Positions 4,510 through 28,969 of a stretch of 30,341 nucleotides of DNA are shown one piece after another (position 1 is the first letter of the stretch; every line of letters begins with the position of its first letter). The notes under the pieces were generated by a model. The model was not told where the DNA came from, searched no databases, and saw nothing but the letters and a program-made list of their open reading frames with translations. A program made the position numbers and the translations under genes. The stretch is from Candidatus Thorarchaeota archaeon SMTZ1-45 (GTDB lineage: Archaea > Asgardarchaeota > Thorarchaeia > Thorarchaeales > Thorarchaeaceae): NCBI GenBank assembly GCA_001563335.1, contig LRSL01000010.1, forward strand, positions 1 through 30,341, written 5' to 3'.

Positions 4510-5169
4510 ATGAGCGACGATATTGATATTATTCGCAAGGAACTCGAAGAGGTTCGTAAACTGAAAGAGGAGCTGAAAAAAGAATTACATGATATGAAAG
4601 CTCTGAAGAGAGAGGAACAGAACAAAGGTCAGCGTCGTCAGATTCATAGAGACGAAGCACGACGACTCAGAGCGGAAGCAAGACGTGCTCGTGCATCAAG
4701 ACCACCAAAACCTCCACGTCCACCTAGAGTCACAAGGGTTGACCTAGATCTTGAGGACCTCACAGATTCTTTAGAAACCATGATGGATGGGCTTGGCCAC
4801 CAGATCGAGATGAGTCTAAGGAACATTGATGGTCTGAAAGTACCAGGAATAAGAATTCACAAGGACTATCGAAGGACTAAGAGGAGAAGAGACCAACGCC
4901 AAGAGATTGAGTCAATAGCTCCAGAACGCGTGGCTGCGATAGTTGCACCCCTTGGAAGTGAAGAACGGTTGAAGATTCTTGACTACCTCAAGACAGGTGG
5001 GAAGAGTTTCAATGACATCGAGAATTTCACGGGCAAGACAGGCAGTTCATTGACTCATCATCTGAATCCTCTGATTGAAGCTGGCTATGTGGTCAAGGGT
5101 GAAGTAAGAGGAACTTACTATGTCACAGTAGAAGGACGGTTGGCCTCAGTGGTTGACTCATCGGGTTGA
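4510..5169 (+). CDS. ArsR-type winged-HTH regulator with N-terminal coiled coil (probably the 5' part of a frameshifted gene running to 5461)
   Basis: LGSEERLKILDYL...SFNDI...SLTHHLNPLIEAGYV...RGTYYVT is an ArsR-like wHTH. Start moved to ATG 4510 because ATG 4480 lies inside the promoter palindrome. Confidence 0.85.
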   Translation: MSDDIDIIRKELEEVRKLKEELKKELHDMKALKREEQNKGQRRQIHRDEARRLRAEARRARASRPPKPPRPPRVTRVDLDLEDLTDSLETMMDGLGHQIEMSLRNIDGLKVPGIRIHKDYRRTKRRRDQRQEIESIAPERVAAIVAPLGSEERLKILDYLKTGGKSFNDIENFTGKTGSSLTHHLNPLIEAGYVVKGEVRGTYYVTVEGRLASVVDSSG

Positions 5170-11588: not shown

Positions 11589-12929
11589 ATGCAGGTAGTC
11601 TTTACCCCTGGGACGCTGTTATTGATTGGTCTAGCGCTTGTTCTAGCCTATTTTGGCGCTGAGATAATGACGAGATTTGGTATTCCCAAAATATTAGGGT
11701 TCATGCTTGCAGGGCTGTTTCTCGGAGTAACTGGAGTGCTTAGTGATGCCACTCGAATCGCGCTATTCCCGCTTGTTGATCTCGCTCTGGGGCTCATAGG
11801 ATACAACATAGGTCTGGAAATCAGGAAAGAGGTCTTTAGCGGACAGACACGACGGATGTCTGTTATTCTCATTTTGGAATCAATCCTGACATTTGCTATA
11901 GTCACGGTGCTGACTGGACTTCTACTTGGTGCATGGCATATTGCCATTGTTTTTGGAGCCCTTGCCAGTGCCACTGATCCTGCCTCTACAGTGATGGTGA
12001 TTTGGGAGCGTAAATGTAAGGGGAACCTCACTGACACCCTTATGTTCATACTTGCAATGGATGATGTCATAGCGATTCTCTTAGCTGATGCTGCAATTAC
12101 CATAGCAGTTCTTTTCTATGCTACTCCAGGTACTATAACTCTCATAAGTGCCACAGCATCTCTGATCTATGAGATAGTTGCGTCATCCGCCATTGGTGCA
12201 CTTCTTGGGTTTGTGATGGTCTTTTTTGTGAACAAGGAGGAGAATCGTCGGGAAATATTGGAATTCGAGCTTGGTATGATTGTCTTGCTTGTAGGACTGA
12301 TGTCTTGGTTGCATCTAAGCGCAATTCTCTCTTGCATGGTGTTTGGTTTTGTAGTTGGAAACTATGTGAGCACTGAAAAAGAACCTATCAGCCACACACT
12401 AAAAGTCGTCATGTCACCAATTGTGATGATTTTCTTCGTCATCGTTGGTGCATCAATTGACCTTGGCGTCATTGCAAATGCCTTTGTGGTCATTCTTGCT
12501 GCGACATATGTTGGGGGCAGAACCTTTGCCAAGTACTTCGGTGCGAGGGTGGGAGCTCAGATGACAAGAACACCCCCTCTCACAACAAGATATCTGGGAC
12601 TATGTCTTATGTCACAGGCTGGAGTAGCGGTTGGGTTGTCTCTCATTGTAGAGCAAAACTTTCTCTCGATTGGGAATGCAGAGGCAATCTTCTATGGCAT
12701 TTTGATTCTCAACGTTATTGCATTGACAACAATGATCCTCCAAGTGTTTGGTCCAATTGCTGCTAGCGAGGGTCTCCGAAGAGCTGGAGAGTACCCACCT
12801 GATCTGTGTGGACCTGATGATAACTATGACATCGAAGCTATTGTATCATCTCAAAATAGTCCTGATAACGAACAGGACACAGTTAATGACCCCGCTCAGG
12901 ATTCTGATGATCTCCTGAGAGATGGTTAG
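11589..12929 (+). CDS. Cation:proton antiporter (CPA2/Kef-like), paralog 1
   Basis: About 12-13 TM helices, SATDPA, AMDD, GRTFAKY and SQAGVAVGL motifs; acidic C-terminal tail. Confidence 0.9.
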   Translation: MQVVFTPGTLLLIGLALVLAYFGAEIMTRFGIPKILGFMLAGLFLGVTGVLSDATRIALFPLVDLALGLIGYNIGLEIRKEVFSGQTRRMSVILILESILTFAIVTVLTGLLLGAWHIAIVFGALASATDPASTVMVIWERKCKGNLTDTLMFILAMDDVIAILLADAAITIAVLFYATPGTITLISATASLIYEIVASSAIGALLGFVMVFFVNKEENRREILEFELGMIVLLVGLMSWLHLSAILSCMVFGFVVGNYVSTEKEPISHTLKVVMSPIVMIFFVIVGASIDLGVIANAFVVILAATYVGGRTFAKYFGARVGAQMTRTPPLTTRYLGLCLMSQAGVAVGLSLIVEQNFLSIGNAEAIFYGILILNVIALTTMILQVFGPIAASEGLRRAGEYPPDLCGPDDNYDIEAIVSSQNSPDNEQDTVNDPAQDSDDLLRDG

Positions 12930-13138
12930 GTGTCGTGTATCTTAGCAGACATTCCTCTTGAATACCAACCCATGGAGATAAAGTTCTCTTCACAGTGTCA
13001 AAGTCAATGTTAGAATCTGTATCAAAATTTTGTAATCAATGATGTACAAATCCATGCAATGATGTAATTAGTAATCTTCAAATGGTTTCAAATATTTTAT
13101 AGACACCCGTTTCTAGAACAACACTGGAGCTTTGGCTC

Positions 13139-14455
13139 TTGGACCATTTCCTATTGACAATCGGTGCAGCCCTTGTTCTGGCATATATAGGTGCCTTCAT
13201 ACTCAAGAAGCTTGGCATCTCTCAGACGTTTGGATTTATGCTCGCTGGTATTGTTTTAGGTTTAACAAGTATATTGACTGAGCAAACAATTCATGACTTA
13301 CAGTCCTTTGTTGCTCTAGCTTTAGGACTGATAGGCTACAATATTGGTCATGAATTAAGTAGTCCTAATCTCACAAAAGGAAGAATACGAAAACTCATTC
13401 TTATAGTTTTTATAGAGGCTACAACTGCCTTTCTTTTGGTTACATTTCTGACTTTCATAATCCTCTCATCTCTTGGATTTCCCCATCCACTTCCTGCAAC
13501 AATACTCCTTGGGGCTATAGCCAGCGCAACCGCTCCTGCTGCAACAGCTAATGTGGTTTGGGAGTGTGCCTGTGAAGGACCTGTGACTTTCTCGCTTATG
13601 TTTGTCCTCGCTGCTGATGATATTATTGCAGTTATACTAACAAACTCCGCTATTGCCTTTGGGTTATGGGTCTATGTTCCTGGTTCACAAGGCTTCACAT
13701 CTGTGTTAATCGAGCCTGTGATAGGTATCTTCTGTTCTGTGATTATGGGAATTGTGTTTGGTTTGATTTTTCTTTATCCTGTCAACATCGAGAAGGATAG
13801 AGGAGCACTACTCGAGCTTGAGATTGGAATGGTTATTCTATTGATTGGTCTCATAGAATTTCTAAACATTTTTTTCAGGTCTCAAGGGCTATTGATTCAA
13901 TTTAGTGACATCTTTGCTGCTATGGTCTTTGGTTATCTAGTAGGGTCACGAATTAGTCATGATAAAGAGCAAGTTCCCGAATTACTCGAACATGTCATGG
14001 CTCCTATCGTGATGATTTTTTTTGTCATGGTAGGGGCTAGGATGATACAGCTTCTAACGACCTATGAAACCCTCCTTCTGGTTATCATTACCGTTGGTTT
14101 GTATCTTGGTGGTGGAGCGTTTGGGAAGTACTTCGGAACTGCACTTGGAGGCAGAATTGTAAACGAAGTTCCTGCAATACAATTATACTTGGGTCGGTGT
14201 CTCCTATGTCAAGCTGGTGTTGCTTTAGGCTTATCTTTCATTATTGAGGAAACATTTTTTGCACTAGGTGGTGAAGCTCAGATAATGGGCGGTATGATTC
14301 TTGGGGTTGTTGCTCTTTCAACTATGATTCTAGAATTGATCGGACCCATGGCTGTGAGGCGGAGTTTGGTGTCAGCTAATGAATGTTCTGCGTGTCGTGA
14401 TGCATTTCAGTCTCATGATGATATACATCTTGACGTTTCTGATAACAGGCCTTGA
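13139..14455 (+). CDS. Cation:proton antiporter (CPA2/Kef-like), paralog 2
   Basis: SATAPA, AADD, GKY and CQAGVALGL motifs; clearly similar to the upstream paralog; TTG start with GGAG RBS. Confidence 0.9.
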   Translation: MDHFLLTIGAALVLAYIGAFILKKLGISQTFGFMLAGIVLGLTSILTEQTIHDLQSFVALALGLIGYNIGHELSSPNLTKGRIRKLILIVFIEATTAFLLVTFLTFIILSSLGFPHPLPATILLGAIASATAPAATANVVWECACEGPVTFSLMFVLAADDIIAVILTNSAIAFGLWVYVPGSQGFTSVLIEPVIGIFCSVIMGIVFGLIFLYPVNIEKDRGALLELEIGMVILLIGLIEFLNIFFRSQGLLIQFSDIFAAMVFGYLVGSRISHDKEQVPELLEHVMAPIVMIFFVMVGARMIQLLTTYETLLLVIITVGLYLGGGAFGKYFGTALGGRIVNEVPAIQLYLGRCLLCQAGVALGLSFIIEETFFALGGEAQIMGGMILGVVALSTMILELIGPMAVRRSLVSANECSACRDAFQSHDDIHLDVSDNRP

Positions 14456-15352: not shown

Positions 15353-15841
15353 ATGCCACGTGCTGGAGAGTGGAACAAGAGGATCGATATCATCCTTGTT
15401 GCTATCTCCATAGTGACCCTCTCTGGAGCCCTCTGGATTTGGGTATCAGCAATGGCTGTTTCAAAAGAGATAGTCTTTCTTGCTACCACCATAGCTCTTG
15501 TGATCTCTTTGGTCCTAGTTCTGAATGTGGCTGTTCTAGTTGTCATTCGTCTTCAGAGAAGAGTTTCGCATCTCGAAGGCATCATGAAGATGTCAAATGC
15601 TCAAGAGGTCTCTCCAGAAAAAATACTGGTGGTAACACTCACCAATACTGAACGTCGTATAATTAATCGTCTAGAAGAGAATGGTGGCCAGATGGCTCAG
15701 GATGAATTACGAAGAGCTACGGGACTGAGTAAGTCTACCCTTAGTGTCACTCTTTCCACTCTCGAACGAAAATCGCTAATTCGTCGAACTGAGAGCGGTC
15801 GAACAAAGATAGTGACACTTGAGCATGATGTCGCTAAGTAG
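15353..15841 (+). CDS. Membrane-anchored winged-HTH (MarR-like) transcriptional regulator
   Basis: Two N-terminal TM helices; LTNTERRII...QDELRRATGLSKSTLSVTLSTLERKSLIRR...GRTKIV wHTH; AGGTGA RBS. Confidence 0.88.
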   Translation: MPRAGEWNKRIDIILVAISIVTLSGALWIWVSAMAVSKEIVFLATTIALVISLVLVLNVAVLVVIRLQRRVSHLEGIMKMSNAQEVSPEKILVVTLTNTERRIINRLEENGGQMAQDELRRATGLSKSTLSVTLSTLERKSLIRRTESGRTKIVTLEHDVAK

Positions 15842-16011: not shown

Positions 16012-17796
16012 ATGAAACCAATGATAAAACAACTTACATCTCTAGCTCTACTCTCAAGTATCATAGTTCTGGGAGTAGGGACGAATGCCGCAATTGCTCT
16101 TGATGGAACCTTTAGCTCTGCACAGATTGTCAGTCCATTCACTGAGATGCAACCTGGTGTATATGTTGCGTGGCAGTGGTGGAATGAAACTGGAAGTGAC
16201 TATTCTGTTCCAATTGATCCTGGTTATTTCTCTCGCATGACTGACGATTATTATTACACTGAATATCATGTGGAAGACATCTTTGATAATAGCTATACTA
16301 TCACCGAAATTAGCTTCTACAACTGGACATCTGATTGGGCGTTCTCTAATCTCCTTGTTGTTATCCTTCTGGATCCTGATGCATCATATATGTCTTGGAT
16401 GTCACAACAACCAAGCATTGCAGATGACATCTGGGGAATATATTGGTGGCCTCATGAAGAGGCACTTACTGGGGATGAGGTATTCATCTATTCCTCTTTC
16501 TATTATTCTGAATACAACTCAAGCAGCTATTACTATGCTGAATATGTTTGGCAAGATGAGGATGGACTCCCAGTTGATCCAAACGCAGTAATTCCAATTC
16601 TGAAGCCCGAATATGAGTGGGTTTCCTTCATGAACGAGACCTATGAGTATGACTATGACTGGGACTACTGCGGGTTTGGCTATGATGTCAATGAGATGTT
16701 CAGGGCTGATAATACCGAACACTGGATGAACCATTATTTCTCAGGCTTCAGCACATTTAACGATACAAATGGTAACGGTCGAATGGACATTGTTTACAGC
16801 GAGGTGGAGTATGACTTCGACGAGGATGGCATCATCGATTGGACTTGGTACCAGATGAACGAAACAGCCTCAGAGTTCGTCTATGGATTTCATACTACAA
16901 ATGCCGAACTAGGTGCAATCTCGACACCTCACATCAACTCAGACAATCAGATAGAGTGGAGTGCAGAGATTGTTGATATCCAAGGTGCATTGATGAGATA
17001 TCCTCCCTATGATGTTTGGTTCTTTGATGCCCCCTATATTGATGACTACTTCATAGATCAAAAAACAATACCTGTTGTTGTTGACAGCTTCGAGCTCACG
17101 TTTAGATTTGAAACCACCAGTGATGCAGCGGTTGTCAAGATTGACCAGTACATTGGTGACTTCAACGACCCTTTCACTGGAGAGGTTTCAACAGACCTGG
17201 AGGGTCTAGGACTCACTATCAATTACTGGAGTTCTTTCACAAGCCATGTGATTCCTGAGGTCCCTGTTGATCCAACCAATCCTGACCCCCTCCCTGGAAA
17301 TGAATCAAAACCCACAGAAATGCCACCTGAGAGTATTCCCCAGGATGAAGACTGGGTTCTCCTCCAAACTGATTCACTTGAGTCTACTGACGTTCCAGGC
17401 GGTTCTCTCCGATTCTCCGACGAAACCAGAACTCGATCAACGGTCGACTTTGGTGGAACATATGTCTGGGGTCGGGACGGACAGACTTATGATGTAGTAC
17501 CAGCCATAATGCCCTACTACTTCTATGCTGTCCCCATGCTCGCGGAATCCACCACCGATCTAGCCTATGCTGGTTGTTGCTGGTGGGGGCAAACTTACTA
17601 CTACAGCTCCTGCTATGCACAATGGGATGGCTACTCAATTACTCACGACCCAATATTCTCAGTGTTTCCGACGACCGCACCCTCTTCTGCAAGCGCCTTT
17701 ATTTCGGGTCTAATTTGGTCTTCAGTTGTTGTTGGTGTCTTTGGTGTAGCCGCAATCTTAGTGGTATTTTTGAGAATAAACTCTGAGAGAAAGTGA
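16012..17796 (+). CDS. Secreted, C-terminally anchored acidic/aromatic-rich surface protein
   Basis: Signal peptide, Y/W/D-rich body, DTNGNG and DFDEDG Ca-binding-like loops, Pro-rich linker, C-terminal TM helix plus basic tail. Confidence 0.88.
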   Translation: MKPMIKQLTSLALLSSIIVLGVGTNAAIALDGTFSSAQIVSPFTEMQPGVYVAWQWWNETGSDYSVPIDPGYFSRMTDDYYYTEYHVEDIFDNSYTITEISFYNWTSDWAFSNLLVVILLDPDASYMSWMSQQPSIADDIWGIYWWPHEEALTGDEVFIYSSFYYSEYNSSSYYYAEYVWQDEDGLPVDPNAVIPILKPEYEWVSFMNETYEYDYDWDYCGFGYDVNEMFRADNTEHWMNHYFSGFSTFNDTNGNGRMDIVYSEVEYDFDEDGIIDWTWYQMNETASEFVYGFHTTNAELGAISTPHINSDNQIEWSAEIVDIQGALMRYPPYDVWFFDAPYIDDYFIDQKTIPVVVDSFELTFRFETTSDAAVVKIDQYIGDFNDPFTGEVSTDLEGLGLTINYWSSFTSHVIPEVPVDPTNPDPLPGNESKPTEMPPESIPQDEDWVLLQTDSLESTDVPGGSLRFSDETRTRSTVDFGGTYVWGRDGQTYDVVPAIMPYYFYAVPMLAESTTDLAYAGCCWWGQTYYYSSCYAQWDGYSITHDPIFSVFPTTAPSSASAFISGLIWSSVVVGVFGVAAILVVFLRINSERK

Positions 17797-18401: not shown

Positions 18402-19166
18402 TTAACCCAAGGCAACAGGGTTTGCTATATCCCAGAAGTGAACAAAGAGATCATGACACCAATGAAGACCTATACTATCCTCAATTCTGAAACCCAAATA
18501 ATCAAGTCGACCGTCAAGATCTGGTAGAGCAAGTATCGCCTCAGACTCAGAAAGAATCACAACATGAGATACTTTTTCAAGATGCCTAGGTTCCATAAGA
18601 TTTCCTCGATATTTGCTAAAATCAGGAAGCATCTCTTCAGGTAATTTTGGTACTTCAATGTCTGCTGGTAGGACTACCTTAAATTCAACGCCTCTTTCAA
18701 GGCTTTGCTCAAGTAGTGGGAATGTGCTTGATAGTGCTTGATCAGACAGTATCCAAACATACTCGATTGCCCTTGAAATCAGACTATCTACATGCTGAAA
18801 TAGTACAATTGCATTATCAGTTAATTCAGCGTTTACTAAATCTCCTATTCGAGAGATAAATTCCCTTGGTAGGTTTGACATTGTATGGGTCATGAAATAT
18901 TCCTGGTTTTTGATGAGGAATGAAAGTGGTGGTAGAATCTCCTGCAGTTGAGAACCATATGCTGTGATGAAATACGCCCCATCAGACCCTTTCTGAATCA
19001 AATCAGCTTTTGTCATTCGTGATAGATGTCTGGATGTTTCTTGAACTGTCAAGTCAAGAGTAGAAGCGAGTGCAGTCAATTTTGCTGGGCTTTCTCTCAG
19101 CACATTTAAAATTCGGAGTCTGTCCTCGTTTGAAAGCTCAAACAGGAGTTTTGAGAGCTCTTCCAT
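18402..19166 (-). CDS. Archaeal ArsR-like wHTH regulator with C-terminal DUF1724/FilR1-like domain
   Basis: N-terminal ELSNEDRLRIL...QETSRHLSRM...YFITAYG, then YFMTH...LP.EF..RIGDL and the terminal WC.DLF..FW. Confidence 0.88.
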   Translation of the reverse strand: MEELSKLLFELSNEDRLRILNVLRESPAKLTALASTLDLTVQETSRHLSRMTKADLIQKGSDGAYFITAYGSQLQEILPPLSFLIKNQEYFMTHTMSNLPREFISRIGDLVNAELTDNAIVLFQHVDSLISRAIEYVWILSDQALSSTFPLLEQSLERGVEFKVVLPADIEVPKLPEEMLPDFSKYRGNLMEPRHLEKVSHVVILSESEAILALPDLDGRLDYLGFRIEDSIGLHWCHDLFVHFWDIANPVALG

Positions 19167-19268
19167 ATTGTTTCAAATGTCATATCGTGTTAATAATTCA
19201 TACTAGAACTTGAGATATGAATGGTAAGACTTATAAACTAACTATTGTTAATCATTTTTGGGAGTTTT

Positions 19269-20072
19269 ATGTCAACTAATTACAAATCATTCCAAATCAT
19301 AAACATCTTTGCAGTTGCTTTAACAATTGCAATGAATATACTTGCGAATATCTTGCCATTCAATGGCGTTAATACTGGTGAAGTGGCAGATTACTTTCTG
19401 AACTATTTCACACCACAAGGCTATGTGTTTGCAATCTGGTTCATAATTTACATTCTTCTTCTGGTCTTCGTCTTCTACCAAGCAAAGGCTGATCAGGTGA
19501 GCGAAGAATATCTTGCGAAGATTGGTTACTTATACCTGATCGGTGCAATTCTAAATGTTGCTTGGTTGCTGGTTTTCCATTACTCTTATGGAAACGATCC
19601 ATTGCTAATCTGGACTGAACCTCTGATTGGTGGCCTACTGATTGTACTTCTAATTACCTACGTCAAGCTTGAGATTGGAGTCAAGGAAGTGCCCCTGAAA
19701 CAGAAGCTTGCAGTTCATCTTCCTGTTAGTGTGTATGTCGGCTGGATATCTTTAGCGACCATAGCAAACACTGCATCTGTGCTTAACTCAGCATTTGTGA
19801 TTCCATTAGATGTGCAATACCTCTGGACAGCTTTGGTATTAGTAGTGGCACTACTAATCACATCTCTCATGCTTATGTTGAGACGCGACATCGCTTATGC
19901 GCTTGTAGTTGTGTGGGCAGCTCCAGGAATTGCTCTAAAGTGGTCTTTGATACCAATAATCTTCTGGTCTGCAACACTTGTGACAATCATTGTGATTCTT
20001 CTCATCATCTTGATTCCAGTAATCAGACGGAAGAATCCAGTGGACTATTATCTAGTCAGAAATCTTGAATAA
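19269..20072 (+). CDS. TspO/MBR-like tryptophan-rich membrane protein
   Basis: FTPxGYVFAIW, LNVAWL and SVYVGWISLATIAN motifs. ATG 19269 follows a GGGAG RBS; the track start is 19245. Confidence 0.85.
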   Translation: MSTNYKSFQIINIFAVALTIAMNILANILPFNGVNTGEVADYFLNYFTPQGYVFAIWFIIYILLLVFVFYQAKADQVSEEYLAKIGYLYLIGAILNVAWLLVFHYSYGNDPLLIWTEPLIGGLLIVLLITYVKLEIGVKEVPLKQKLAVHLPVSVYVGWISLATIANTASVLNSAFVIPLDVQYLWTALVLVVALLITSLMLMLRRDIAYALVVVWAAPGIALKWSLIPIIFWSATLVTIIVILLIILIPVIRRKNPVDYYLVRNLE

Positions 20073-20111: not shown

Positions 20112-23100
20112 CTATCCTTCTTCTTCTACTGTTTCAGGAGCCCTGATTATATCAGTCGCAAACGGGGACTCATCTGTCGTGATGAGTAATTGATTCTCCA
20201 AAGCCCTCATGATTGCTTGATAGACCCGCCCCTCTTCGAGACCACAAGCTGAAATCTCTGAAGCGAGTTCTTCGAGTTTGAATTCTTCTCCTTGCTTACG
20301 AGCTATCCGTTCATCAGCGCAGGTGGATGTTGGGAATTTCTTTGATTCGTCTAACTTGTAGGTCCTTAAGAGAGCTCCATCTAGGATCTCGTCGAATAGT
20401 GAATTAAACCGCTTAGTTGTATGATGATTAAGGACAACGACCGGTACATCTTCCATCGTTTCATCAAAGATGAATCCAACAGTCTTGGCAAACTTAATCA
20501 TTTTCTCTCGTTGCTCAGGTGAAGGATTGCCAGTTGTGATGAATGCGCAAATTAGCTTGTTCGTGGACACCACCCTGACGATGTCCGAGATTGGAATCAA
20601 CCCCCATTCTTCGGATGTTGTTTCAATATCAAACTCGCCCCGAAAACTAGTGATTGCGGTGATGAATGCAGAAATCACAGCTTCCTCGAGACCCTCTCTT
20701 AGAATCTTAGAATAGACTGGTAATCCACTGTCTTTATGAAGCACAATAACTCCGAGAAGACTTTTGACATCATCAAAACGTTTCTTAATTGCGAGGGTGA
20801 TTTTGTTCTGTTTGATTCGTCTTTTTCTTGCTGTTCTTCTATAAGCAAGACCAACTACTACCATGCCAAGTCCTATGAATACCCAGTAGTAGTTACGCAC
20901 AGTCATGACAATCATTGTGCCAACATCTCTTCCTGGCTGCAGCAGCATTACAAGTGGTTCATTTAATATGAAATTGGTTGCATCAAAGGAGATCACAACA
21001 TAGTATGTACCGTCTGCTGAGGGCATGTCAAGTGCTGCTATGTACACTCCAGGCGTGGCTGACTCTGGCATCACTATGTCTTGCTCATAGATTCGCACTC
21101 CATCAGTTCTACGGATGTTATAGGCCACAGTGGCTCCAGTTACTGGAGCCCCTGTGTCAGCCTCTGTAATTCTTACCATGAGTGTCGTAATGAGTCCCTC
21201 TGACCCCCTAAGACCTTGAAGGACCTCAATAGTTACTGGGACCTCAGCAACACTGAACCTAAGCCTGAATGTTGCAGTTTCAAATCCTGTCTTCTCAAAG
21301 GTTAGGAGTACACTATAGTCTCCAAGAGCTTGTGGGGTCATGTTAACAGAATATTCTCCAGAGCCAAGTTCAGTGAATGTCACCCAATCAGCCCCCTCAC
21401 CTAAGGGTACCACTGTTGCTTCATAGATATTGCTACTATTTGACTCGAACATGTAACTGAAATTGAACAAGTATGACCTACCAATAAGTAGGTCATCAAA
21501 GGGACTCGAACCTGATATGGCTGTGTCAATTTCCTGCACCTGAAACAAGAACTGTTTGGTTGAAGTATAGTGATCAGTCTTGTTTGCTGTGATTGTTAGC
21601 GACCAGGTACCTAATGCCTGTCCTCTAATTGTGATCAAGTAATAGCCAGTATATGACTCGACAGCTATAACTAGTCCTGGATCTTGTGTAAGTACTGATA
21701 CATTAGCTCCAACTATATTGACAGAGGGGGTCACATCAGCTCGATAATAATAAACTATGAGAGTGTATGGTTCCTCGAACTCAACAAGTGCTGAGGAAAC
21801 ATCCCCTTCAAACACAATTCTTGTTTCTATCTGGGTCACTATCAATGTGAAGGCTGCACTTGAACTCTGATAGTTGTCTGCGGAACTCCGAAAGAGAACA
21901 TTGAAAGTGCCTATTGCCAGTGGGGTCAATGTGAAATTATACAATCCGGTCCCAGGTCCCACTAAAACAACTTCCGAAATGATTAACCCACTTGGAGGAT
22001 TGGTCACCGTGAAGTTGGCATTTTCAATTGGATTAAGACTGTCATCCTGTAAATGTAGCTGAACAGTGAAGTTTTGGTCCAATGCAATACTTGCACTTGA
22101 TGGTAATGATGTAAGAATTGTTGGTATGCCAGTCGCAGTTAGAGTGAACGTTGCATATTTCGTCTTGTGGTTTAAGATGCTGGCACTGATTACAATCGAG
22201 AATGCCCCTGCTGCTATGGGTGTAAGTGTAATCTGATAGTATCCATCAACAATATGAGAAAAGCCACCGTGGGTCAGTCCAGTAGCTGGAGTTATCGTCA
22301 CGACTTGTAGATCGGCACCCACAAGACCTGTTCCGGTGCTGTTTCTATATTCAACGACCAGAATATAGCTGCTACCAAACAAAACGACATCTACAGTGCC
22401 ATTAAGAAGCTGGAGTTCGCTTTCTGTTTCGCCAATAATCAGAGTAAAGGCATCAGAAGTATTGTAATGATACTCCTTGGAAAGTGTTATCGTTATCCCA
22501 TAGATTGCTGATATATTGCACTTGATATCTACAGAGTACAAACCGGTGTCATTATCAATGAAATTGGTCCACAAAAGACCTTCTTGAGGTCCTGTGAATA
22601 TGATTGTGGGAAAGGCCCCAGCTACCCCGCTCCCATTAAGGAGTTGGTAACTCATCTGTACTGAGAAGATCTCATTGAGACCAATTTCAATTGGAATCAA
22701 TCCCGCATTTAATATCTCTAGAGTGGTTTGTATAGCTGTCACTGATAGTGTGAATCTCATAATCGAACTCTGATAATTGACAGCTGAAGCTCTGAAGAGC
22801 AGATTGTAGACAGAAATGTCTGATGATCTTAGAGTAATGTTGTACAATCCACTTCCAATTGGTGTTGCTCCTGAAATGAAGATTCCACTTGGTGGGTCTA
22901 GCACAGATATAGTAGCGGAATTAATTTGATTCAGACTCTCATCTTGGAACAATAGCTGAAGTGTGAACGTCTGATTAACTGCGACTGTGGCACTCGGTGG
23001 AATAGCTGTCAAAATAGTTGGGATTACAACACCAGTCAGAGTAAAGGTCGCATATTGAGTCTCATGATTGAAGAGACTTGCGCGGATTACTATAGAGTAT

Positions 23101-25664
23101 GTACCAGTGGTAGTTGGGGTAAAAGTAATCTCGTAATAGCCTTCAGTTATTAGAATGAAACTGCCATTATCTAGTCCAGTTTGAGGGGTTATGGATACAA
23201 TTTCTAGATTTGCTCCAGAAAGACCTTGTCCGGTGCTATTTCTATATTCAACCACCAATCGATAGCTGTTTCCATATTGAATAACATCTGCAGTACCATT
23301 CAGAAGTTCAAGCTCGGTTCCAGTTTCACTAATTATGAGTGTAAAGGAGTCGGAAGAGTTGTAATGATATGGCTTTGATAGGGTTATTGTGACCTCGTAG
23401 GATGTGGCTATGTCACAAATGATATCCACTGAATAATGTCCATTATTATTGTCAACGAAATTAGTCCACGAAAGACCTCCACCCGGTCCTGTAAATGTAA
23501 CTATTGGCTGAGCCCCTGGAATTCCTGTCCCATTAAGGAACTCATAGTCAATTTGTGCTGTGAATACTTCATTTAGTCCATTCTCAATTGGGATTGACCC
23601 TGCATTTAGGATTTCTATTGAAGTTTCATACATTGAAATAACTGTGAACTGAGTTGAAACTGCGTCGAAAAATGGTCTCGTGGCAGTGACTATGACATTA
23701 AATTGTCCTCCTCCAAGTAACGATGTATCAAAGTCCGCCTCCCACCAATTTTTTGCATAGTTTTGTGTGAATGAGATAATTGTGCTTGACCAATTTGCTT
23801 CGATTTTGACACTATCATCCAAAAGATACTCGTTTGTATCAGCATCCCTGTACGTGATGAGATTTGAGATAGTCAGACCATAGTCCGTTTCGATAAGTGG
23901 GTAAGTTGCAACGATTGATGCTGAGTGGTAGAGATCGAAAGTGACTGATTCAAAGGCTATTTCCGTTCCATTAGTCCAGAGAACATCAATCGACCATTCC
24001 CCTGCAGTAGTGTTTGAGCTTCCAAAAGTCCATGAGGAGCTTGTAGCAGCACCTCCTACCAAAATAATCGAATCAATAATCCAAATGGCTTCATCTGGCA
24101 ATATCCATGTAATGTTAACAGGGTCACCTCCAGCTGGTGTTACACTTGCAGTCCCTATCTCTACCTGAACTCGTGTATCATTCCCAGGCCTGAATAGTGA
24201 ATTCTCTGACCAACCACCAATGCTCTGGTCGAACACTTGGACGGAGATGTTTTTTGCATAATTCCAGCTATTGAGATTAATCTCCCACCAACCACTTCGA
24301 CTCAATTCACTTGTTGGTATATGTAGTACGCCTGAAGTTATGACACAAGAATCTGTGATATTATTCATTAGTGGGTCCCAGACAGTTGTATTCTCCCAAT
24401 CCTTAGGATAGAAGATATCAATTGTTGAATCTGAATAACCACTTGGCTGTGTGATATACGTATAGAAGGTAAGATCTGAATTCTGACCTGATGTAATTGA
24501 ATATGCTACTCCCTTCTTACTGAGATCTGTTGTCCATGATGAATTGATATAACGCTGAAACAATGTAGTGACCGAGTAGGTAAATGTTACAGTTGCATTC
24601 GCTGTGATTTGATACTCCAGTGGAGATGCCGTCCAAAAGTCTGGATTGGAGATTGTAGCAGTTCCTGTTCCAATTCCCGAAACTGGAGCTGAAAAAGAGC
24701 CTGCATGAAAAGTTAAATCGACATCATCAAATCCCAGGGACGTGAGGCTCTTAAGTTCAATATTATCAATATAGATGGTCACATTTTCCGCATTTTCATG
24801 ACCATCTGGCTCCCCAAGTGGATCATCATCATAGTCGGTGTTTACGTATATCCACATATCCGCCCAACCAATCCAAAGACCAACATATATTGAGAAAGTA
24901 CTCAACCCTGGATCAACTGTAAAATCATGGCTAACCGAATACCATGTTTCTCTGGAGTTAAGTTCCTGCAGAGGATAGTACCATGCTTCACTAGCTAGCT
25001 GCCAATAGACACCAAAATCGCCTTGAAACGTGTTATCTCCCTCTGGGTCAAGTGGACCAGTTACATAGCGAAAATCGAACTCCATTCTGAAGCTCACTGA
25101 TTCAGGCGTGTTTGTAATTACTTGTTCCCATGCTGCTTCGGAGTCTTCACTATGAAGATAAGAACCTCCCAGTCCAGGATTGTAATTGCCAATGTTCTGG
25201 CATACAATGTATTCACCTGTAGAATTATAGGAGTTAATCTGTGTATTAGAACCACCATCATTGCTGAAAGGAATCCATGGGTCTGAACCATCATCAAATG
25301 TTCCATTTACAGAATACAATCGCTCGAGGTTTGCAATTTCAATTTCTGTACTGTTCACAAACCAGCCATTTGCTCCATCAATTGTGATATTTCCAGTAGT
25401 GTTAGTTCCAGTGTCGGATAATCCTTTGCTTATTTCTGTTGTCTGATATGCTGACTGCAACATCGATACAGGTTCAATAACCCCTTGTTGTTGAATCTGC
25501 GAAATTATGAATCCTCCGACATTCACCTCGTTAATGTTTTGAATTATTGTTGCTTCTCTATTATTATAATCCTCATGATGGCTTCTAGGAGTTGAAAAAG
25601 GTATTACTGTCAAAATAAGTGAAAAACCAATCAGGCATATAATCACATAGCGTTTAACATTCAT
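20112..25664 (-). CDS. Giant single-pass surface protein: Ig-like repeats, TM helix, cytoplasmic longin-like plus winged-helix-like domain
   Basis: About 1850 aa: N-terminal hydrophobic signal, ~100-aa Thr/Ser-rich beta repeats, TM YWVFIGLGMVVVGLAY plus basic stop-transfer, ~240-aa cytoplasmic domain. GAGGTGA RBS favours ATG 25664 over GTG 25673. Confidence 0.92.
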   Translation of the reverse strand: MNVKRYVIICLIGFSLILTVIPFSTPRSHHEDYNNREATIIQNINEVNVGGFIISQIQQQGVIEPVSMLQSAYQTTEISKGLSDTGTNTTGNITIDGANGWFVNSTEIEIANLERLYSVNGTFDDGSDPWIPFSNDGGSNTQINSYNSTGEYIVCQNIGNYNPGLGGSYLHSEDSEAAWEQVITNTPESVSFRMEFDFRYVTGPLDPEGDNTFQGDFGVYWQLASEAWYYPLQELNSRETWYSVSHDFTVDPGLSTFSIYVGLWIGWADMWIYVNTDYDDDPLGEPDGHENAENVTIYIDNIELKSLTSLGFDDVDLTFHAGSFSAPVSGIGTGTATISNPDFWTASPLEYQITANATVTFTYSVTTLFQRYINSSWTTDLSKKGVAYSITSGQNSDLTFYTYITQPSGYSDSTIDIFYPKDWENTTVWDPLMNNITDSCVITSGVLHIPTSELSRSGWWEINLNSWNYAKNISVQVFDQSIGGWSENSLFRPGNDTRVQVEIGTASVTPAGGDPVNITWILPDEAIWIIDSIILVGGAATSSSWTFGSSNTTAGEWSIDVLWTNGTEIAFESVTFDLYHSASIVATYPLIETDYGLTISNLITYRDADTNEYLLDDSVKIEANWSSTIISFTQNYAKNWWEADFDTSLLGGGQFNVIVTATRPFFDAVSTQFTVISMYETSIEILNAGSIPIENGLNEVFTAQIDYEFLNGTGIPGAQPIVTFTGPGGGLSWTNFVDNNNGHYSVDIICDIATSYEVTITLSKPYHYNSSDSFTLIISETGTELELLNGTADVIQYGNSYRLVVEYRNSTGQGLSGANLEIVSITPQTGLDNGSFILITEGYYEITFTPTTTGTYSIVIRASLFNHETQYATFTLTGVVIPTILTAIPPSATVAVNQTFTLQLLFQDESLNQINSATISVLDPPSGIFISGATPIGSGLYNITLRSSDISVYNLLFRASAVNYQSSIMRFTLSVTAIQTTLEILNAGLIPIEIGLNEIFSVQMSYQLLNGSGVAGAFPTIIFTGPQEGLLWTNFIDNDTGLYSVDIKCNISAIYGITITLSKEYHYNTSDAFTLIIGETESELQLLNGTVDVVLFGSSYILVVEYRNSTGTGLVGADLQVVTITPATGLTHGGFSHIVDGYYQITLTPIAAGAFSIVISASILNHKTKYATFTLTATGIPTILTSLPSSASIALDQNFTVQLHLQDDSLNPIENANFTVTNPPSGLIISEVVLVGPGTGLYNFTLTPLAIGTFNVLFRSSADNYQSSSAAFTLIVTQIETRIVFEGDVSSALVEFEEPYTLIVYYYRADVTPSVNIVGANVSVLTQDPGLVIAVESYTGYYLITIRGQALGTWSLTITANKTDHYTSTKQFLFQVQEIDTAISGSSPFDDLLIGRSYLFNFSYMFESNSSNIYEATVVPLGEGADWVTFTELGSGEYSVNMTPQALGDYSVLLTFEKTGFETATFRLRFSVAEVPVTIEVLQGLRGSEGLITTLMVRITEADTGAPVTGATVAYNIRRTDGVRIYEQDIVMPESATPGVYIAALDMPSADGTYYVVISFDATNFILNEPLVMLLQPGRDVGTMIVMTVRNYYWVFIGLGMVVVGLAYRRTARKRRIKQNKITLAIKKRFDDVKSLLGVIVLHKDSGLPVYSKILREGLEEAVISAFITAITSFRGEFDIETTSEEWGLIPISDIVRVVSTNKLICAFITTGNPSPEQREKMIKFAKTVGFIFDETMEDVPVVVLNHHTTKRFNSLFDEILDGALLRTYKLDESKKFPTSTCADERIARKQGEEFKLEELASEISACGLEEGRVYQAIMRALENQLLITTDESPFATDIIRAPETVEEEG
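21825..23624 (-). repeat. Tandem ~900-bp (~300-aa) intragenic duplication
   Basis: EILNAGSIPIENGLNEVF vs EILNAGLIPIEIGLNEIF are offset by 897 nt; the NYQSS copies are offset by 903 nt; VVEYRNSTG and YATFTLT recur. Confidence 0.9.
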
Positions 25665-25865
25665 CTCGGTCACCTCAAGTCTTAGGATTAGAGTTCAACG
25701 AGCCCCTTGGCTTATAGCTCCAATTTTGAATGCTGGGATTCCACTCAGTTCAGAAACCTTTTTTCTTGAGGTTATTATTATTCCTCGTTTTACCTGCTTT
25801 CGATTAATCGAATAGATTGAATAATTACACGCTAATACTTATTCCAAAGAATGGATCAAAATCAA

Positions 25866-26459
25866 TCATTTACCAAATCTGGGGATAAGCATTGGAACAT
25901 TCTCTCTATACTTCAGATACTCCTCTCCGAACTCTCTGATTAGTTCTTGTTCCTCTTTCCAACACAAGATGTAGTTGATTCCACACACTAAAGGTGTTAC
26001 TAGCAATGAGAAATATCCTGAAAACAGAAAAGAAGCACCTATGTGAGAGAATATCGCTCCCAAGTACTGTGGATGTCTTACTTTTGAGTAGACACCTGTT
26101 GAAATCACTCTATCCGCACGATGGGTTTCTGCAGCTTTAAGTCCCATTTCAGTGACCCCCTTTATTCCAAGCCAAGCTCCAGGCAGAAGAAATACAGTGG
26201 CAAACAAGAGATGCGAGAGTGGCAAACTTAAGAAGCTGACTCCTAGTATCTGGATCGAGAACTTCTCTTGGGGTGAAACCCAGAGTCCAATCAGGAAGAG
26301 AAAGAATCCCCATCCTGAGACCATCCCAAGAACAGCTCCAATCTTAAATCCCTTCTCCATGCCATATTTTCCATCCAACTTAGAATGTTCGACTGACAGA
26401 AAATGGACTGGTACGACAAGGATTAATCCTACCATTGAGAGAAGAAACCAGAAGCTCAT
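25866..26459 (-). CDS. Isoprenylcysteine carboxyl methyltransferase / PEMT-family membrane methyltransferase
   Basis: TGVYSKVRHPQYLG and EEQELIREFGEEYLKYRENVP motifs. Confidence 0.9.
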   Translation of the reverse strand: MSFWFLLSMVGLILVVPVHFLSVEHSKLDGKYGMEKGFKIGAVLGMVSGWGFFLFLIGLWVSPQEKFSIQILGVSFLSLPLSHLLFATVFLLPGAWLGIKGVTEMGLKAAETHRADRVISTGVYSKVRHPQYLGAIFSHIGASFLFSGYFSLLVTPLVCGINYILCWKEEQELIREFGEEYLKYRENVPMLIPRFGK

Positions 26460-26561: not shown

Positions 26562-26918
26562 ATGTCAAACAATGAAATGTTAGAAGAACTTAGGGAAATA
26601 CGGAAACTGCTTACACCAGCTCCAGCGCCTCCAAAACCTAAAGGACTCATAAACGAGTTTGTTGCTTTTATTTCAAACTACAAGGTACTTGGACTCGCTG
26701 TGGCGTTCATCTTGGGTATCTATATCGGTGTGGTTGTACAAGCGCTTGTGACTAGTTTCATCATGCCGCTCATACAGATTGTACTCCCTGGTATTGGTGG
26801 GGATGTTGTTTATACACTTGCTGCTGGACCAATTATCAACAGCCTAATCACATTCATAATCGTGGCATTTGTGGTCTTCATAATCGTGAAGATTGCAACT
26901 CGAATTGGAATTGATTAA
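26562..26918 (+). CDS. mscL: Large-conductance mechanosensitive channel family protein
   Basis: EFVAFI...VLGLAVAFILG...VVQALV...IMPLI (S1/TM1) and GPIINSLITFIIVAFVVF (TM2); GGGGTGA RBS. Confidence 0.88.
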   Translation: MSNNEMLEELREIRKLLTPAPAPPKPKGLINEFVAFISNYKVLGLAVAFILGIYIGVVVQALVTSFIMPLIQIVLPGIGGDVVYTLAAGPIINSLITFIIVAFVVFIIVKIATRIGID

Positions 26919-27266: not shown

Positions 27267-28517
27267 TTACTTACCAGTTGATATTGGTATCATTGATGAG
27301 TTGATAAAATGCTCCAATTGACTCCTAATATGCTCAATTCTATCATTCTGAGAGTTTGTAACTCTTGAATACAAACTGAAGACGACTCTCTTCATATTTT
27401 CCTTGTCATCATCCAGCTCCCATCTGCCAACTACTTGACCATTTAGCCAGATTGAAGGTCTTACTTCCCCTGTGGCTCTTATTCCTTTACTTGGCATCTT
27501 TCTTGGTCCGTCCGGTTTCGAGGGCCAGAAGTGCTTTTTGTCTGCAGGAAACAGCTTTGGTTGGACATCCTCCACTATGAAATTAGCTCGATTAATGAAT
27601 GCTTTCAGAAAATGGTCCTCGTACGGTAGAAACCAAACTAGATCTTCAGATGGAGGTTCAAGGGATGCCGCAAATTCCAAATCCTCCATCAAAATGAACT
27701 TCTCAGAACCCCCAACTTCAATTTTGACGATAGTATCTCCCAATACTTCAAGCACGTTCTTGACAGTTGTTTTTGTTTCTCTTAGCCACCATGCAATATC
27801 ATCAACCGATGCAGGACCAAATCGTTCAATGTGGCTTTTGATGAGCAGAGTGATAGCCTCTTGCTCATCAATCAACTTCAGTTTGAAACCCTTAACCCAC
27901 TTGTTCAGCAAAGCATATGATGTGAAACTACTTCGTGCGTGACTGGCTTTTGCACGAATAACCTCTCCCCGTGCCATTAACATCAAGAGGGCAGAACGTA
28001 CATTCTCTCCAACTTCTGGAAGAAGTTTCTTCAACTCTGTTGTTAGTAGTGGTCCATCCTCCAAGGCCGCCCTCACACGGTCAAGCATATCTTCAATCTC
28101 TCTGTCACTCAGCTGGTCCATCTTTCTGTATTTGTCTGCCCGATAGGCCCTAAATAATGAAGGTCCGGTTGCACTTAGTATCATTGAAAGGTTATCAATG
28201 TGCATCACATGCAACGTTGTCCTGAATGCATGAGTCCTTGCTAGTCTTCTCCCATTGTCAATTGAATCAAACATACTCTCAGCATCATAATCACCAATAC
28301 GTGCCCATACAGAAAGGTAAGGCGTCCAATAATCAGTTGAGTGAAGACCAAGTTGGTCCTTTGCTACTTGATAGAAGTCAGACGGTTTCTCATCCAGAAG
28401 TGATTGTTTCCTTAGCTGATTCCAATGGAGTTGTTCTTCAGTTGCCTTGACCAATGGTATACCCCTTATGAGTGTCGACGGCATTGTCCCTTTTATCATA
28501 TACTTTTCAAGAATCAT
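27267..28517 (-). CDS. AlkZ/YcaQ-like (HTH_42) DNA glycosylase family protein
   Basis: LGLHSTD..TPYLSVWAR, RTTLH, FGPASVDDIAWW, FLPYED and GQVVGRW motifs; ATGA overlap with the upstream gene. Confidence 0.88.
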   Translation of the reverse strand: MILEKYMIKGTMPSTLIRGIPLVKATEEQLHWNQLRKQSLLDEKPSDFYQVAKDQLGLHSTDYWTPYLSVWARIGDYDAESMFDSIDNGRRLARTHAFRTTLHVMHIDNLSMILSATGPSLFRAYRADKYRKMDQLSDREIEDMLDRVRAALEDGPLLTTELKKLLPEVGENVRSALLMLMARGEVIRAKASHARSSFTSYALLNKWVKGFKLKLIDEQEAITLLIKSHIERFGPASVDDIAWWLRETKTTVKNVLEVLGDTIVKIEVGGSEKFILMEDLEFAASLEPPSEDLVWFLPYEDHFLKAFINRANFIVEDVQPKLFPADKKHFWPSKPDGPRKMPSKGIRATGEVRPSIWLNGQVVGRWELDDDKENMKRVVFSLYSRVTNSQNDRIEHIRSQLEHFINSSMIPISTGK

Positions 28518-28969
28518 TCAAAACCTGCAATTGAAATCTCAGAACCAGTAGTGTATCCTCTGACTTCGACGATTCTTGCACCTACACCACCAATAATCCC
28601 ACTGAAGAACCATATTTGATAGAATAATTCCGAAATGCTAGATGAGGTGGGATTCCAACCAATTGTGGGGGCTAGACTTGACCATAGGAGTGAGTCAGTG
28701 ACCATTGTTAATATGAGAAAGATTATGCCTACAAAGGAACCTTTCACTAGAGCGCAGATTTGAAACCGCAGACTGCATCCTCCACCAACTAGACTCTTGT
28801 ACGTAACTGGAGCGATGATTAACGGCACGCTGACTAACATTGTCCACCAATAGAACATCGGATCAAACATGCTTCCAAGAGCGATTCCAATAACTAGTGT
28901 TAACGAGTATACTACTATCCAGACTATAGGGACCCATAACCAGCTCTTTATCTCAGAAATTAGACTCAA
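28514..28969 (-). CDS. Four-TM hypothetical membrane protein
   Basis: 151-aa hydrophobic ORF, translationally coupled to the AlkZ-like gene. Confidence 0.8.
   Translation of the reverse strand: MSLISEIKSWLWVPIVWIVVYSLTLVIGIALGSMFDPMFYWWTMLVSVPLIIAPVTYKSLVGGGCSLRFQICALVKGSFVGIIFLILTMVTDSLLWSSLAPTIGWNPTSSSISELFYQIWFFSGIIGGVGARIVEVRGYTTGSEISIAGFE

Follow-up and report, generated by a model that had tools for sequence, protein, structure and literature searches.

A Thorarchaeota family of giant surface glycoproteins with a predicted Roadblock/longin-fold module in the cytoplasmic tail

Introduction

Passages of one published account describe Roadblock dimers and longins as platforms for GTPases and report that Thorarchaeota encode Rab-/Rag-like GTPases as well as Roadblock proteins (PMC10933270). 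Pairing of such domains, together with presentation of a surface to a partner, is described in portions of two papers for MglB, Ragulator, TRAPP and GATOR1 (PMC10933270, PMC12290439). Liu et al., in the part of their preprint on which we draw, find Roadblock/longin families and small GTPases to be hugely expanded in Asgard archaea and count 130 Roadblock-superfamily asCOGs (bioRxiv 10.1101/2020.10.19.343400). Here we describe a gene in a 30,341-nucleotide stretch of Candidatus Thorarchaeota archaeon SMTZ1-45 (NCBI GenBank assembly GCA_001563335.1, contig LRSL01000010.1, positions 1 to 30,341 of the forward strand; hereafter the window), which encodes an 1850-amino-acid (aa) surface protein whose cytoplasmic tail appears to contain a domain of this kind.

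The extracellular part of the protein is best compared with archaeal surface-layer (S-layer) and other surface glycoproteins and with bacterial adhesins built from Big or Filamin repeats, which likewise have a signal, long immunoglobulin (Ig)-like arrays, dense glycosylation sequons and a C-terminal membrane anchor. To our knowledge, however, those proteins have a short cytoplasmic stub at most, whereas the thorarchaeal family carries a cytoplasmic module of 220-330 aa that is predicted to be folded and is better conserved than the ectodomain. Eukaryotic integrin and Ig-CAM receptors follow a similar logic of a large repeat ectodomain, one transmembrane (TM) helix and a cytoplasmic docking region, but this is an analogy only, as they have no sequence or fold relation to the family and their tails are mostly short linear-motif regions rather than Roadblock/longin domains.

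We find that the gene is a member of a paralogous family of giant type I surface glycoproteins, the named members of which are nearly all Thorarchaeota, and that this family has a strongly conserved cytoplasmic module which, by structure prediction, adopts the Roadblock/longin fold. As modelled, the module would form one compact unit, in which a juxtamembrane helix of polybasic character is followed by an alpha/beta domain of the Roadblock/longin fold and then by a small, acidic, winged-helix-like domain of three helices. We tentatively read the tail as a docking platform that would couple the surface protein to a cytosolic partner, with a small GTPase as the foremost, though unproven, candidate.

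Topology of the protein

A single open reading frame (ORF) of 1853 codons runs uninterrupted on the minus strand (20112..25673) from a GTG start, and the ATG three codons downstream, at 25664, gives the 1850-aa protein. The ORF list and translation agree here with an earlier reading of the window, made by a model from the sequence without database searches (the sequence-only reading), which had placed the gene at 20112-25664 (1850 aa). That reading had also called a signal peptide, about 1550 aa of sequon-rich beta repeats, one TM helix (~20841-20892) and a cytoplasmic tail of ~240 aa, all of which we recover.

The N-terminus reads MNVKRY followed by an 18-residue hydrophobic core and holds the top hydropathy peak of the protein (2.39), and hydropathy points to a signal peptide or signal-anchor. 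This segment (aa 6-24, preceded by K/R) and YYWVFIGLGMVVVGLAY are the two strongest hydrophobic segments of the 1850-aa protein, the latter being the only other TM-grade segment ahead of the tail. Eight K/R and no D/E occupy the 15 residues C-terminal of the TM helix, compared with two K/R and one D/E in the 15 residues N-terminal of it. All 37 N-x-S/T sequons lie N-terminal of the helix, and this is an enrichment, as shuffled ectodomain sequences give 19.3 +/- 3.8 and none of 2000 shuffles reached 37; the tail has no sequon against 0.8 expected, which is uninformative taken alone. Lysine makes up 1.0% of the ectodomain, and K+R 14.4% of the tail. Because the flanks are positive on the inside, the sequons are distributed on one side only and the module has soluble, TM-less relatives (see below), we place the tail in the cytoplasm rather than outside the cell. 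With an N-terminal signal, one TM helix, a positive-inside flank and sequons confined to the N-terminal side, the data support a signal-bearing, sequon-rich, single-pass type I giant, as the sequence-only reading had proposed. Its tail is 242 aa long and contains the peptides that this reading had quoted, as written.

A family with a conserved tail

A HMMER scan of 1.84 billion cluster representatives returned 138 homologous cluster representatives (50% identity) at E<=1e-3, with 86 at E<=1e-30. Their names are all 'hypothetical' or 'exported protein of unknown function', and they are assigned to Thorarchaeota or, at phylum level, to Promethearchaeota. The match always falls at the C-terminal end of the long relatives (1000-2342 aa), and among proteins of 30-83 aa the search found one fragment only. 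Relatives are encoded by 86 stretches of GTDB species genomes, and 75 loci were kept; this locus scan used a single peptide pattern from a 17-sequence alignment, and its per-genome copy numbers are lower bounds. Nearly all of the 75 loci are in metagenome-assembled genomes (MAGs) of Thorarchaeota, with several labelled only Promethearchaeota or uncultured archaeon and one Hermodarchaeota. The Hermodarchaeota locus (L024, JBHLLF010000007.1) has the same gene order and a near-identical N-terminus as Thorarchaeota/Promethearchaeota loci L021 and L027, and its label may stem from a problem of binning or taxonomy and not from a broader range of hosts.

Host ORFs were detected at 74 of the 75 loci, and the 36 complete ORFs longer than 1000 aa span 1131-2261 aa. 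These full-length relatives have an N-terminal hydrophobic segment in 33 of 36 cases, and a hydrophobic peak stands just before the tail in 69 of the 74 host ORFs, the other five being cut at a contig end. The window ectodomain aligns to nearly all ectodomain-bearing hosts (coverage 0.56-1.0 for hosts >650 aa, at 28-74% identity), so that the whole architecture appears to be one family and not a tail shuffled onto unrelated ectodomains. In all orthologs compared the tail is better conserved than the ectodomain, with identities of 89 vs 74% (L001), 86 vs 55% (L002), 79 vs 42% (L011), 85 vs 56% (L018) and, in another pair, 45 vs 28%.

MAGs carry 2-4 paralogs, several of them 3 or 4, and the window has one copy. 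Tandem same-strand arrays occur at 10 loci, with two members at eight of them (L040, L041, L045, L047, L048, L050, L063, L073) and three at L066 and L071. Tandem members, which lie ~80-200 base pairs (bp) apart and all possess a TM helix and a tail (L066:3-10693, L071:4096-17247), are candidates for co-expressed hetero-pairs. At one further locus (L043:2-1717) a family member is split within the tail into 449 aa and 118 aa, by a frameshift or an assembly error.

A profile search added a distant subfamily with 23-28% identity over 75-86% of the tail, in which the module is longer and has a conserved LLKLIP[DE]L at its end. In this subfamily the module is placed either directly after a TM helix and KRKRR, for instance in a Lokiarchaeota fragment, or at the C-terminus of TM-less leucine-rich repeat (LRR) proteins (P0189, P0191 and P0193, 481-514 aa, with one from Sigynarchaeota and one on a contig of 3.7 Mb); further members are P0175, P0180, P0186 and P0187. 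Given the TM-KRKRR and TM-less LRR forms, the module would seem to be an autonomous cytoplasmic unit beyond Thorarchaeota. The sequence-only reading had proposed a survey for the same tail on different ectodomains, and such combinations were seen among the distant Lokiarchaeota TM and LRR forms but not within Thorarchaeota, all of whose paralogs have homologous ectodomains. LRR-only genes were also seen near two paralogs (L051:7089-7790, L057:13557-14180).

Fold of the tail

AlphaFold2 modelled the tail from a 44-sequence alignment with a mean predicted local distance difference test score (pLDDT) of 84.4, a predicted TM-score (pTM) of 0.81 and 136 residues at pLDDT >=90. In tail numbering, the predicted helices (H) and strands (E) are H2-27, E28-35, E41-46, H53-69, E88-92, E96-102 and H108-125, followed by H139-152, H155-158, E160-163, H173-181, H189-197, H203-215 and E219-221. 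The first helix continues the TM helix.

Compared with the PDB by Foldseek, the model gave at least 500 matches at E<=10 and only one at E<=1e-3. The matches listed are all of longin or Roadblock type and cover the first ~125 residues of the tail (E 1e-3 to 1.3e-2, TM-score on the target 0.45-0.58). On the longin side they comprise AP-1/2/3 mu and sigma, zeta- and delta-COP, Sec22b, Mon1-Ccz1, Fuzzy-Inturned/CPLANE and an SEA-complex chain, with a probability of 0.9-1.0 for AP2 mu/sigma, zeta-COP, Sec22b, Mon1-Ccz1 and Fuzzy-Inturned. The Roadblock-type matches are homodimers of Asgard MK-D1 Roadblock2 and of Roadblock3, MglB, dynein LC7/Roadblock and the C-terminal domains of Gtr1/Gtr2; chain identities are inferred from the entry descriptions. 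Longin matches (7rw9_M, E 9.9e-4; 6owo_S, TM-score 0.55; 1ifq_A, TM-score 0.58) and Roadblock matches (9jq8_A, E 1.5e-3 and TM-score 0.47; 9jue_C, 3.1e-3 and 0.57; 6hjm_P MglB, 1.3e-2 and 0.53; 3l7h_B) score about equally, and structural similarity was found to both. The model therefore supports, with modest strength, assignment of the first domain to the longin/Roadblock superfold. An alpha/beta sandwich of similar size with strongly conserved internal motifs would also be expected of a small-ligand sensor, in which a GAF/PAS-type pocket binds a cytosolic metabolite or nucleotide and controls the ectodomain from the inside out; however, no GAF, PAS or profilin domain is among the Foldseek matches listed, and we regard a sensor of this type as highly improbable.

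Sequence searches gave a sparser picture. The tail matched no Pfam family at E<=1 and no PDB sequence meaningfully (phmmer). The Pfam families Longin, Clat_adaptor_s, NPR2, NPR3 and Folliculin were absent for the tail and from the 25 most-matched families of 44 relatives, and Robl_LC7 (PF03259) matched neither the window tail nor these relatives. MAPKK1_Int matched one of the 44 relatives at E 0.14, and a sub-threshold Robl_LC7 match covers helix-beta1-beta2 of the distant relative P0193 (E 0.041, 14.1 bits vs a cut-off of 23).

The sequence-only reading had assigned the tail to the longins by topology. The beta-beta-alpha-beta-beta(-beta)-alpha-alpha order it relied on is present in the AlphaFold2 model, and Foldseek matches the superfold, but a conserved helix precedes beta1, and after the central helix come only two long strands and a short bridge. 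Passages of PMC10933270 describe longins as lacking an N-terminal helix, and Roadblocks as having the order alpha-beta-beta-alpha-beta-beta-beta(-alpha), with a five-stranded sheet between the central helix and the N- and C-terminal helices. The helix-beta-beta-helix-beta-beta-helix order of the tail is Roadblock-like; two helices follow the sheet in the model, as in longins. The helix at 2-27 is conserved and is kept in TM-less relatives, and because it persists there with its R-F-D-D motif (R21 in 123/145 and D24 in 145/146 aligned relatives), we favor a Roadblock-type N-terminal helix. Overall, the predicted order is as Roadblock-like as it is longin-like, and a longin specifically is not established.

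Both families of known proteins differ from the tail in other ways. With Roadblock/LC7/MglB proteins (Asgard Roadblock2/3, 9jq8 and 9jue; Thor-RB; MglB) it shares, in prediction, the alpha-beta-beta-alpha-beta-beta(-beta)-alpha order; Foldseek matches them (E 1.5e-3 to 1.3e-2, TM-score on the target 0.47-0.57), and both occur in Thorarchaeota. Yet known Roadblocks are soluble proteins of ~100-130 aa or C-terminal domains of Rag GTPases, whereas the tail is tethered behind the TM helix of an 1850-aa protein, has an extra helical winged-helix-like domain and lacks both Pfam membership and an adjacent GTPase gene. The longins of AP sigma/mu, zeta/delta-COP and Sec22b are its best Foldseek matches and have two post-sheet helices, as predicted for the tail, but sequence identity is 7-18% and the tail alone has the conserved N-terminal helix. 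In SNARE longins, moreover, the domain is N-terminal, the TM anchor C-terminal and there is no ectodomain, so that the order of the tail is reversed.

The likeness to adaptor and coatomer small subunits raises the idea of a sorting or cargo tag, recognised by coat-, ESCRT- or secretion-related machinery, with the protein as cargo moved at protrusions or in vesicles. Some paralogs end in F-[LIV]-[DE]-D-V-E-x-L-L, which would suit this idea. Many (P0023, P0024, P0044, P0053, P0133, P0142, P0152) extend past the tail with an acidic stretch ending F-[LIV]-[DE]-[DE]-V-E-x-L-L, which fits the eukaryotic acidic dileucine pattern [DE]xxxL[LI], although such an ending could equally be an amphipathic helix. 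The window protein lacks the acidic dileucine-like ending, no coat or ESCRT gene was seen in the scanned neighborhoods, and the fold resembles an adaptor subunit itself rather than a cargo peptide, all of which makes a sorting tag very unlikely in our view.

Conserved residues and the C-terminal domain

Across 146-183 aligned relatives, G39, A62 (158/158) and F66 (160/160) are invariant, D24, P41, S44, F59 and E69 nearly invariant, and S85, A99 and E203 among the most conserved positions. G39 (151/151 aligned relatives) and P41 (143/151) form a G-x-P motif, and R67 is arginine in 136/160 relatives and glycine in the distant Lokiarchaeota/LRR subfamily. According to a 2025 survey (PMC12290439), the GTPase-activating protein (GAP) longins FLCN, NPRL2, SMCR8 and C9orf72 and some Asgard longins are marked by a GP motif where the loop ahead of beta2 ends, with the catalytic arginine as its neighbor. 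G39/P41 stand at the GP-motif position, which is a lead only. It is therefore worth considering that the tail is itself a GAP-type longin that pairs with a paralog tail in the manner of FLCN-FNIP or NPRL2-NPRL3 and stimulates GTP hydrolysis by a Rag-/Arf-like GTPase via the arginine near G-x-P. Like the tail as modelled, NPRL2/NPRL3, FLCN and SMCR8 have a longin-type domain followed by a small C-terminal helical domain, with Gly/Pro before beta2 and an arginine nearby; tandem paralogs could supply hetero-pairs, and weak SEA/GATOR1 matches were returned by Foldseek (8adl_S at E 1e-2, 8fw5_C and 7t3a_B at E 2.4-2.6). Liu et al. (bioRxiv 10.1101/2020.10.19.343400) report that most Thor MAGs have proteins in which an NPRL2-like longin is combined with a C-terminal domain. 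However, NPRL2/NPRL3, FLCN and SMCR8 are soluble and have a G-P motif, whereas the tail is membrane-tethered, has G-x-P and loses the arginine to glycine in the distant subfamily. Structurally, the tail is matched best by longins other than the GAP type and by Roadblocks, and none of the Pfam families NPR2, NPR3 and Folliculin was matched at E<=1, so we consider GAP activity quite unlikely.

The tail's C-terminal part is less clear. Modelled alone from 24 sequences, residues 128-242 reached pLDDT 77.9 and pTM 0.59, and Foldseek gave no match at E<=1e-3 (best E 0.21). Winged-helix (WH)-type folds do dominate this weak list, in keeping with the winged-helix-like module of the sequence-only reading, and include the leader-peptide-binding domains of NisB and MadB, the insert of Ebp1/Arx1, the C39 WH of RNA polymerase III, PqqD and UFL1/DDRGK1, with GATOR1 further down; at these E values a winged helix is suggestive and not demonstrated. 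The domain has a net charge of -3 (range -9 to +2, median -3, in 43 relatives), and no helix-turn-helix (HTH) Pfam family was found at E<=1 for the tail or the 44 relatives. Since the domain is acidic and without an HTH profile, DNA binding is unlikely, which argues for a protein-binding rather than DNA-binding role if it is a winged helix. The pTM of 0.81 for the whole tail suggests that the two tail domains pack as one unit. The C-terminal end motif SPFATDIIRAPETVEEEG is conserved only among close orthologs.

A membrane-tethered transcription factor of the ToxR/CadC type, whose C-terminal WH would bind DNA directly or after proteolytic release and so put genes under the control of what the ectodomain senses, was nonetheless weighed. 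The helix-rich, WH-like order and the predominance of WH-type folds in the weak Foldseek list would fit it, as would Atlas neighbors among Thorarchaeota clusters with TrmB (52% of members) and HTH_47 (11%), at scores of 0.79-0.81 that are leads only. In contrast, the putative recognition helix EGRVYQAIMRALE has few basic residues, and the model packs the C-terminal domain onto the Roadblock/longin domain so that it does not swing free. With an acidic domain and no HTH profile, we rejected this explanation and give it scarcely any chance.

Possible role of the tail

We return to the docking platform, which we propose because the characterised members of the superfold are known to work in pairs that offer a binding face to a partner, in most cases a small GTPase, and because Thorarchaeota encode Rab-/Rag-like GTPases and Roadblock proteins. 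Outside the cell the ectodomain would bind a target, whether a surface, a partner cell, some polymer or another molecule like itself. The tail would act as a membrane-apposed protein-docking platform, as Roadblock/longin domains do elsewhere, and most likely pair with itself or with a paralog tail and recruit a cytosolic partner. A small GTPase would be the leading candidate for this partner and a cytoskeletal or coat-like protein the alternative, and events at the surface protein would in this way be linked to the cell interior, or the reverse. The tail would not be a DNA-binding regulator.

Several observations weigh against this proposal. No small GTPase was found by a G1-motif regular expression in 1881 ORFs of the window and the 75 loci, up to +/-10 kb, where motif matches were mainly ABC-type ATPases and a few chance matches. 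Pfam likewise found no Ras/Arf/Rag, Roadblock or longin family among 107 of 128 neighbor clusters within 5 kb, the scan having covered representatives of 90-420 aa and left 21 clusters outside that range. Recurrent neighbors are housekeeping genes (AlkZ-like glycosylase, MscL, PEMT/ICMT-like, folE2, PTPS, DNA ligase, MetRS). The fold match is statistically modest (a single match at E<=1e-3, TM-scores of 0.45-0.58), and model residues 51-80, a loop and short bridge region, have pLDDT of 63-69. Neither Pfam on the 44 relatives nor a profile of them against the PDB links the tail to a known family, and all family sequences come from MAGs. In MglA/MglB-type pairs the GTPase gene is adjacent. Here, with no such family among the neighbors, there is no operonic clue to the partner, and as these scans revealed no gene for a small GTPase, a Roadblock or a longin around the 75 loci, we can only infer GTPase coupling.

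The same silence of the neighborhoods, with no GTPase or signalling gene linked in the 75 loci, would suit a structural anchor, in which the protein is an S-layer-like, sheath or adhesin subunit and the tail oligomerises or spaces subunits by Roadblock-type pairing without signalling. Many archaeal surface-layer proteins have a C-terminal TM helix, as does this giant Ig-repeat glycoprotein, and tandem paralogs could co-assemble. Roadblock proteins are moreover described, in a passage of PMC10933270, as obligate dimers. However, spacing would need less than a module of 242 aa and two domains that carries invariant surface-type motifs (G-x-P, RFDD, PISD), and the same module occurs on soluble LRR domains without a membrane or lattice context. 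We therefore hold a purely structural tail to be somewhat unlikely, and prefer, tentatively, the docking platform.

A bolder version of the docking platform is a prokaryotic single-pass receptor that carries its own platform. Binding or clustering of the ectodomain would pair the tails, of one and the same protein or of tandem paralogs, at the membrane in an FLCN-FNIP-/NPRL2-NPRL3-like manner, by way of the invariant G-x-P loop and R67, and switch a Rag-/Arf-/Rab-like GTPase, leading to actin or membrane remodelling where contact is made. We put this forward as speculation that is unlikely to hold.

Ectodomain

The ectodomain of ~1560 aa consists of a non-repeat N-terminal region and roughly eight Ig-like repeats of ~100 aa. 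Chunked self-BLAST detected a duplicated block of ~299 aa and a weaker ~100-aa periodicity at 24-34% identity (Table 1); self-BLAST of the whole ectodomain gave the identity match alone, and Tandem Repeats Finder found no repeats at the DNA level. The only Pfam match above threshold is a Filamin/ABP280 repeat at aa 796-861 (window 23082-23279; 32.3 bits vs a cut-off of 26.9), with MG2 and Big_1 below threshold, and these matches lead us to regard the repeats as Ig-like beta sandwiches. No similar sequence was found for the ectodomain in a PDB sequence search. The Atlas feature neighbors of the non-repeat region are galactose-binding-like and CBM_4_9 clusters at 0.86-0.87, below the 0.9 level and a lead only, and this region is possibly a jelly-roll or carbohydrate-binding-like domain.

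Table 1. Features of the surface glycoprotein gene in the window; tail residues are numbered from the first residue of the 242-aa tail
Feature	Position	Strand	Basis
Whole gene, 1850-aa type I surface glycoprotein	20112..25664	-	ORF and homologs; stop codon 20112-20114; alternative GTG 25673
N-terminal signal peptide or signal-anchor (predicted)	25590..25664	-	Hydropathy maximum 2.39
N-terminal non-repeat region, aa ~30-330, Trp- and Asn-rich	24675..25577	-	No Pfam or PDB sequence match
Ig-like beta-sandwich repeat array, ~100 aa each, aa ~655-1485	21210..23702	-	Self-BLAST periodicity; Pfam Filamin
Copy 1 of ~299-aa three-repeat duplication, aa 655-952	22809..23702	-	48-64% identity to copy 2
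Copy 2 of internal duplication, aa 953-1283	21816..22808	-	Self-BLAST
Single transmembrane helix, aa 1592-1608	20841..20891	-	Hydropathy; peak upstream of tail in 69/74 related host ORFs
Polybasic stop-transfer and juxtamembrane helix, tail 1-27, net charge +10, conserved RFDD	20760..20840	-	AlphaFold2, alignment
Predicted Roadblock/longin-fold core, tail 28-125, beta-beta-alpha-beta-beta-alpha	20466..20759	-	AlphaFold2 pLDDT mostly 84-97; Foldseek
G-[LIV]-P, end of beta1-beta2 loop/start of beta2 (G39, P41)	20718..20726	-	Alignment; AlphaFold2
Conserved arginine R67, end of central helix (F-R-x-E-F)	20640..20642	-	Alignment
Linker and extra helices, tail 126-158, conserved D126, F149, D154, L157	20367..20465	-	AlphaFold2, alignment
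Small acidic three-helix domain and short strands, tail 159-222, winged-helix-like	20175..20366	-	AlphaFold2; Foldseek best E 0.21
Low-confidence acidic C-terminal end (SPFATDIIRAPETVEEEG)	20115..20174	-	pLDDT <50

Neighboring genes

The gene is flanked on one side by a TspO-like membrane protein (19245-20072, +) and an ArsR-type HTH protein (18402-19166, -), and on the other by a PEMT/ICMT-like methyltransferase (25866-26459, -), MscL (26562-26918, +) and an AlkZ-like glycosylase (27267-28517, -). These neighbors are found again at as many as 22 loci, which we read as plain synteny. A second paralog group adjoins folE2, PTPS, DNA ligase and MetRS genes. Close by on the same strand, the only genes are other members of the family, folE2 or one for a DUF4332/HHH protein. 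As the recurrent neighbors are housekeeping genes in conserved synteny, we rejected a conserved operon partner among them. There is a 4-bp overlap between the gene for the AlkZ-like DNA glycosylase and the end of an ORF of 151 aa without a Pfam family (27267-28969, -), and this co-oriented pair, conserved in 19-22 loci, may be a two-gene unit.

Two HTH genes of the window were considered as paralogs of the tail and rejected, as their sequences differ. One (15353-15841, +) encodes 162 aa with two predicted N-terminal TM helices and a MarR/DUF7343 winged helix, as in a membrane-anchored HTH regulator, and is found in 9 related loci; the other (4480-5169, +) encodes 229 aa and has an unusual architecture, in which the N-terminal half is highly charged, rich in Arg/Glu/Pro and coiled-coil-like, and an ArsR-type HTH lies at the C-terminus. 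A 594-aa ORF without a Pfam family (16012-17796, +) is conserved in 14 related loci. Ordinary-looking features of the window are two adjacent half-size ABC exporter genes with fused transmembrane and nucleotide-binding domains and an 8-bp overlap (6424-10171, -) and two adjacent Na+/H+ exchanger-family paralogs (11589-14455, +). The G+C content of the window is ~38-47% per 1-kb window.

Implications

Full-text literature searches gave no published account of an Asgard surface protein whose Roadblock/longin tail is anchored in the membrane, with the proviso that the supplementary asCOG tables of Liu et al., which lay outside this search, may list the family. The available part of a 2026 structural-clustering preprint (10.64898/2026.10.28.762692) does not mention it. 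The fold itself is known, but the architecture of a giant ectodomain, a TM helix, a Roadblock/longin domain and a small helical domain appears to be undescribed.

Of all 'eukaryotic signature' families, those most expanded in Asgard archaea are the Roadblock/longin domains and the small GTPases, which raises the question of what they act on in a single-membrane cell. The family described here would put a Roadblock/longin-fold domain directly under the plasma membrane, covalently attached to a glycosylated giant and in several paralogs per genome. Should the tail prove to be only a structural spacer, the family would still likely be a major, undescribed component of the Thorarchaeota cell envelope. 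As a soluble bait of ~240 aa with invariant motifs, the tail could be used to find GTPases, cytoskeletal proteins or coat proteins that act at the surface, and it offers a handle on whether outside-in coupling predates eukaryotes. If the self-contained receptor proposed above were true, the family would represent a forerunner, in Asgard archaea, of eukaryotic signalling from receptors to GTPases and of adaptor-type longins at membranes.

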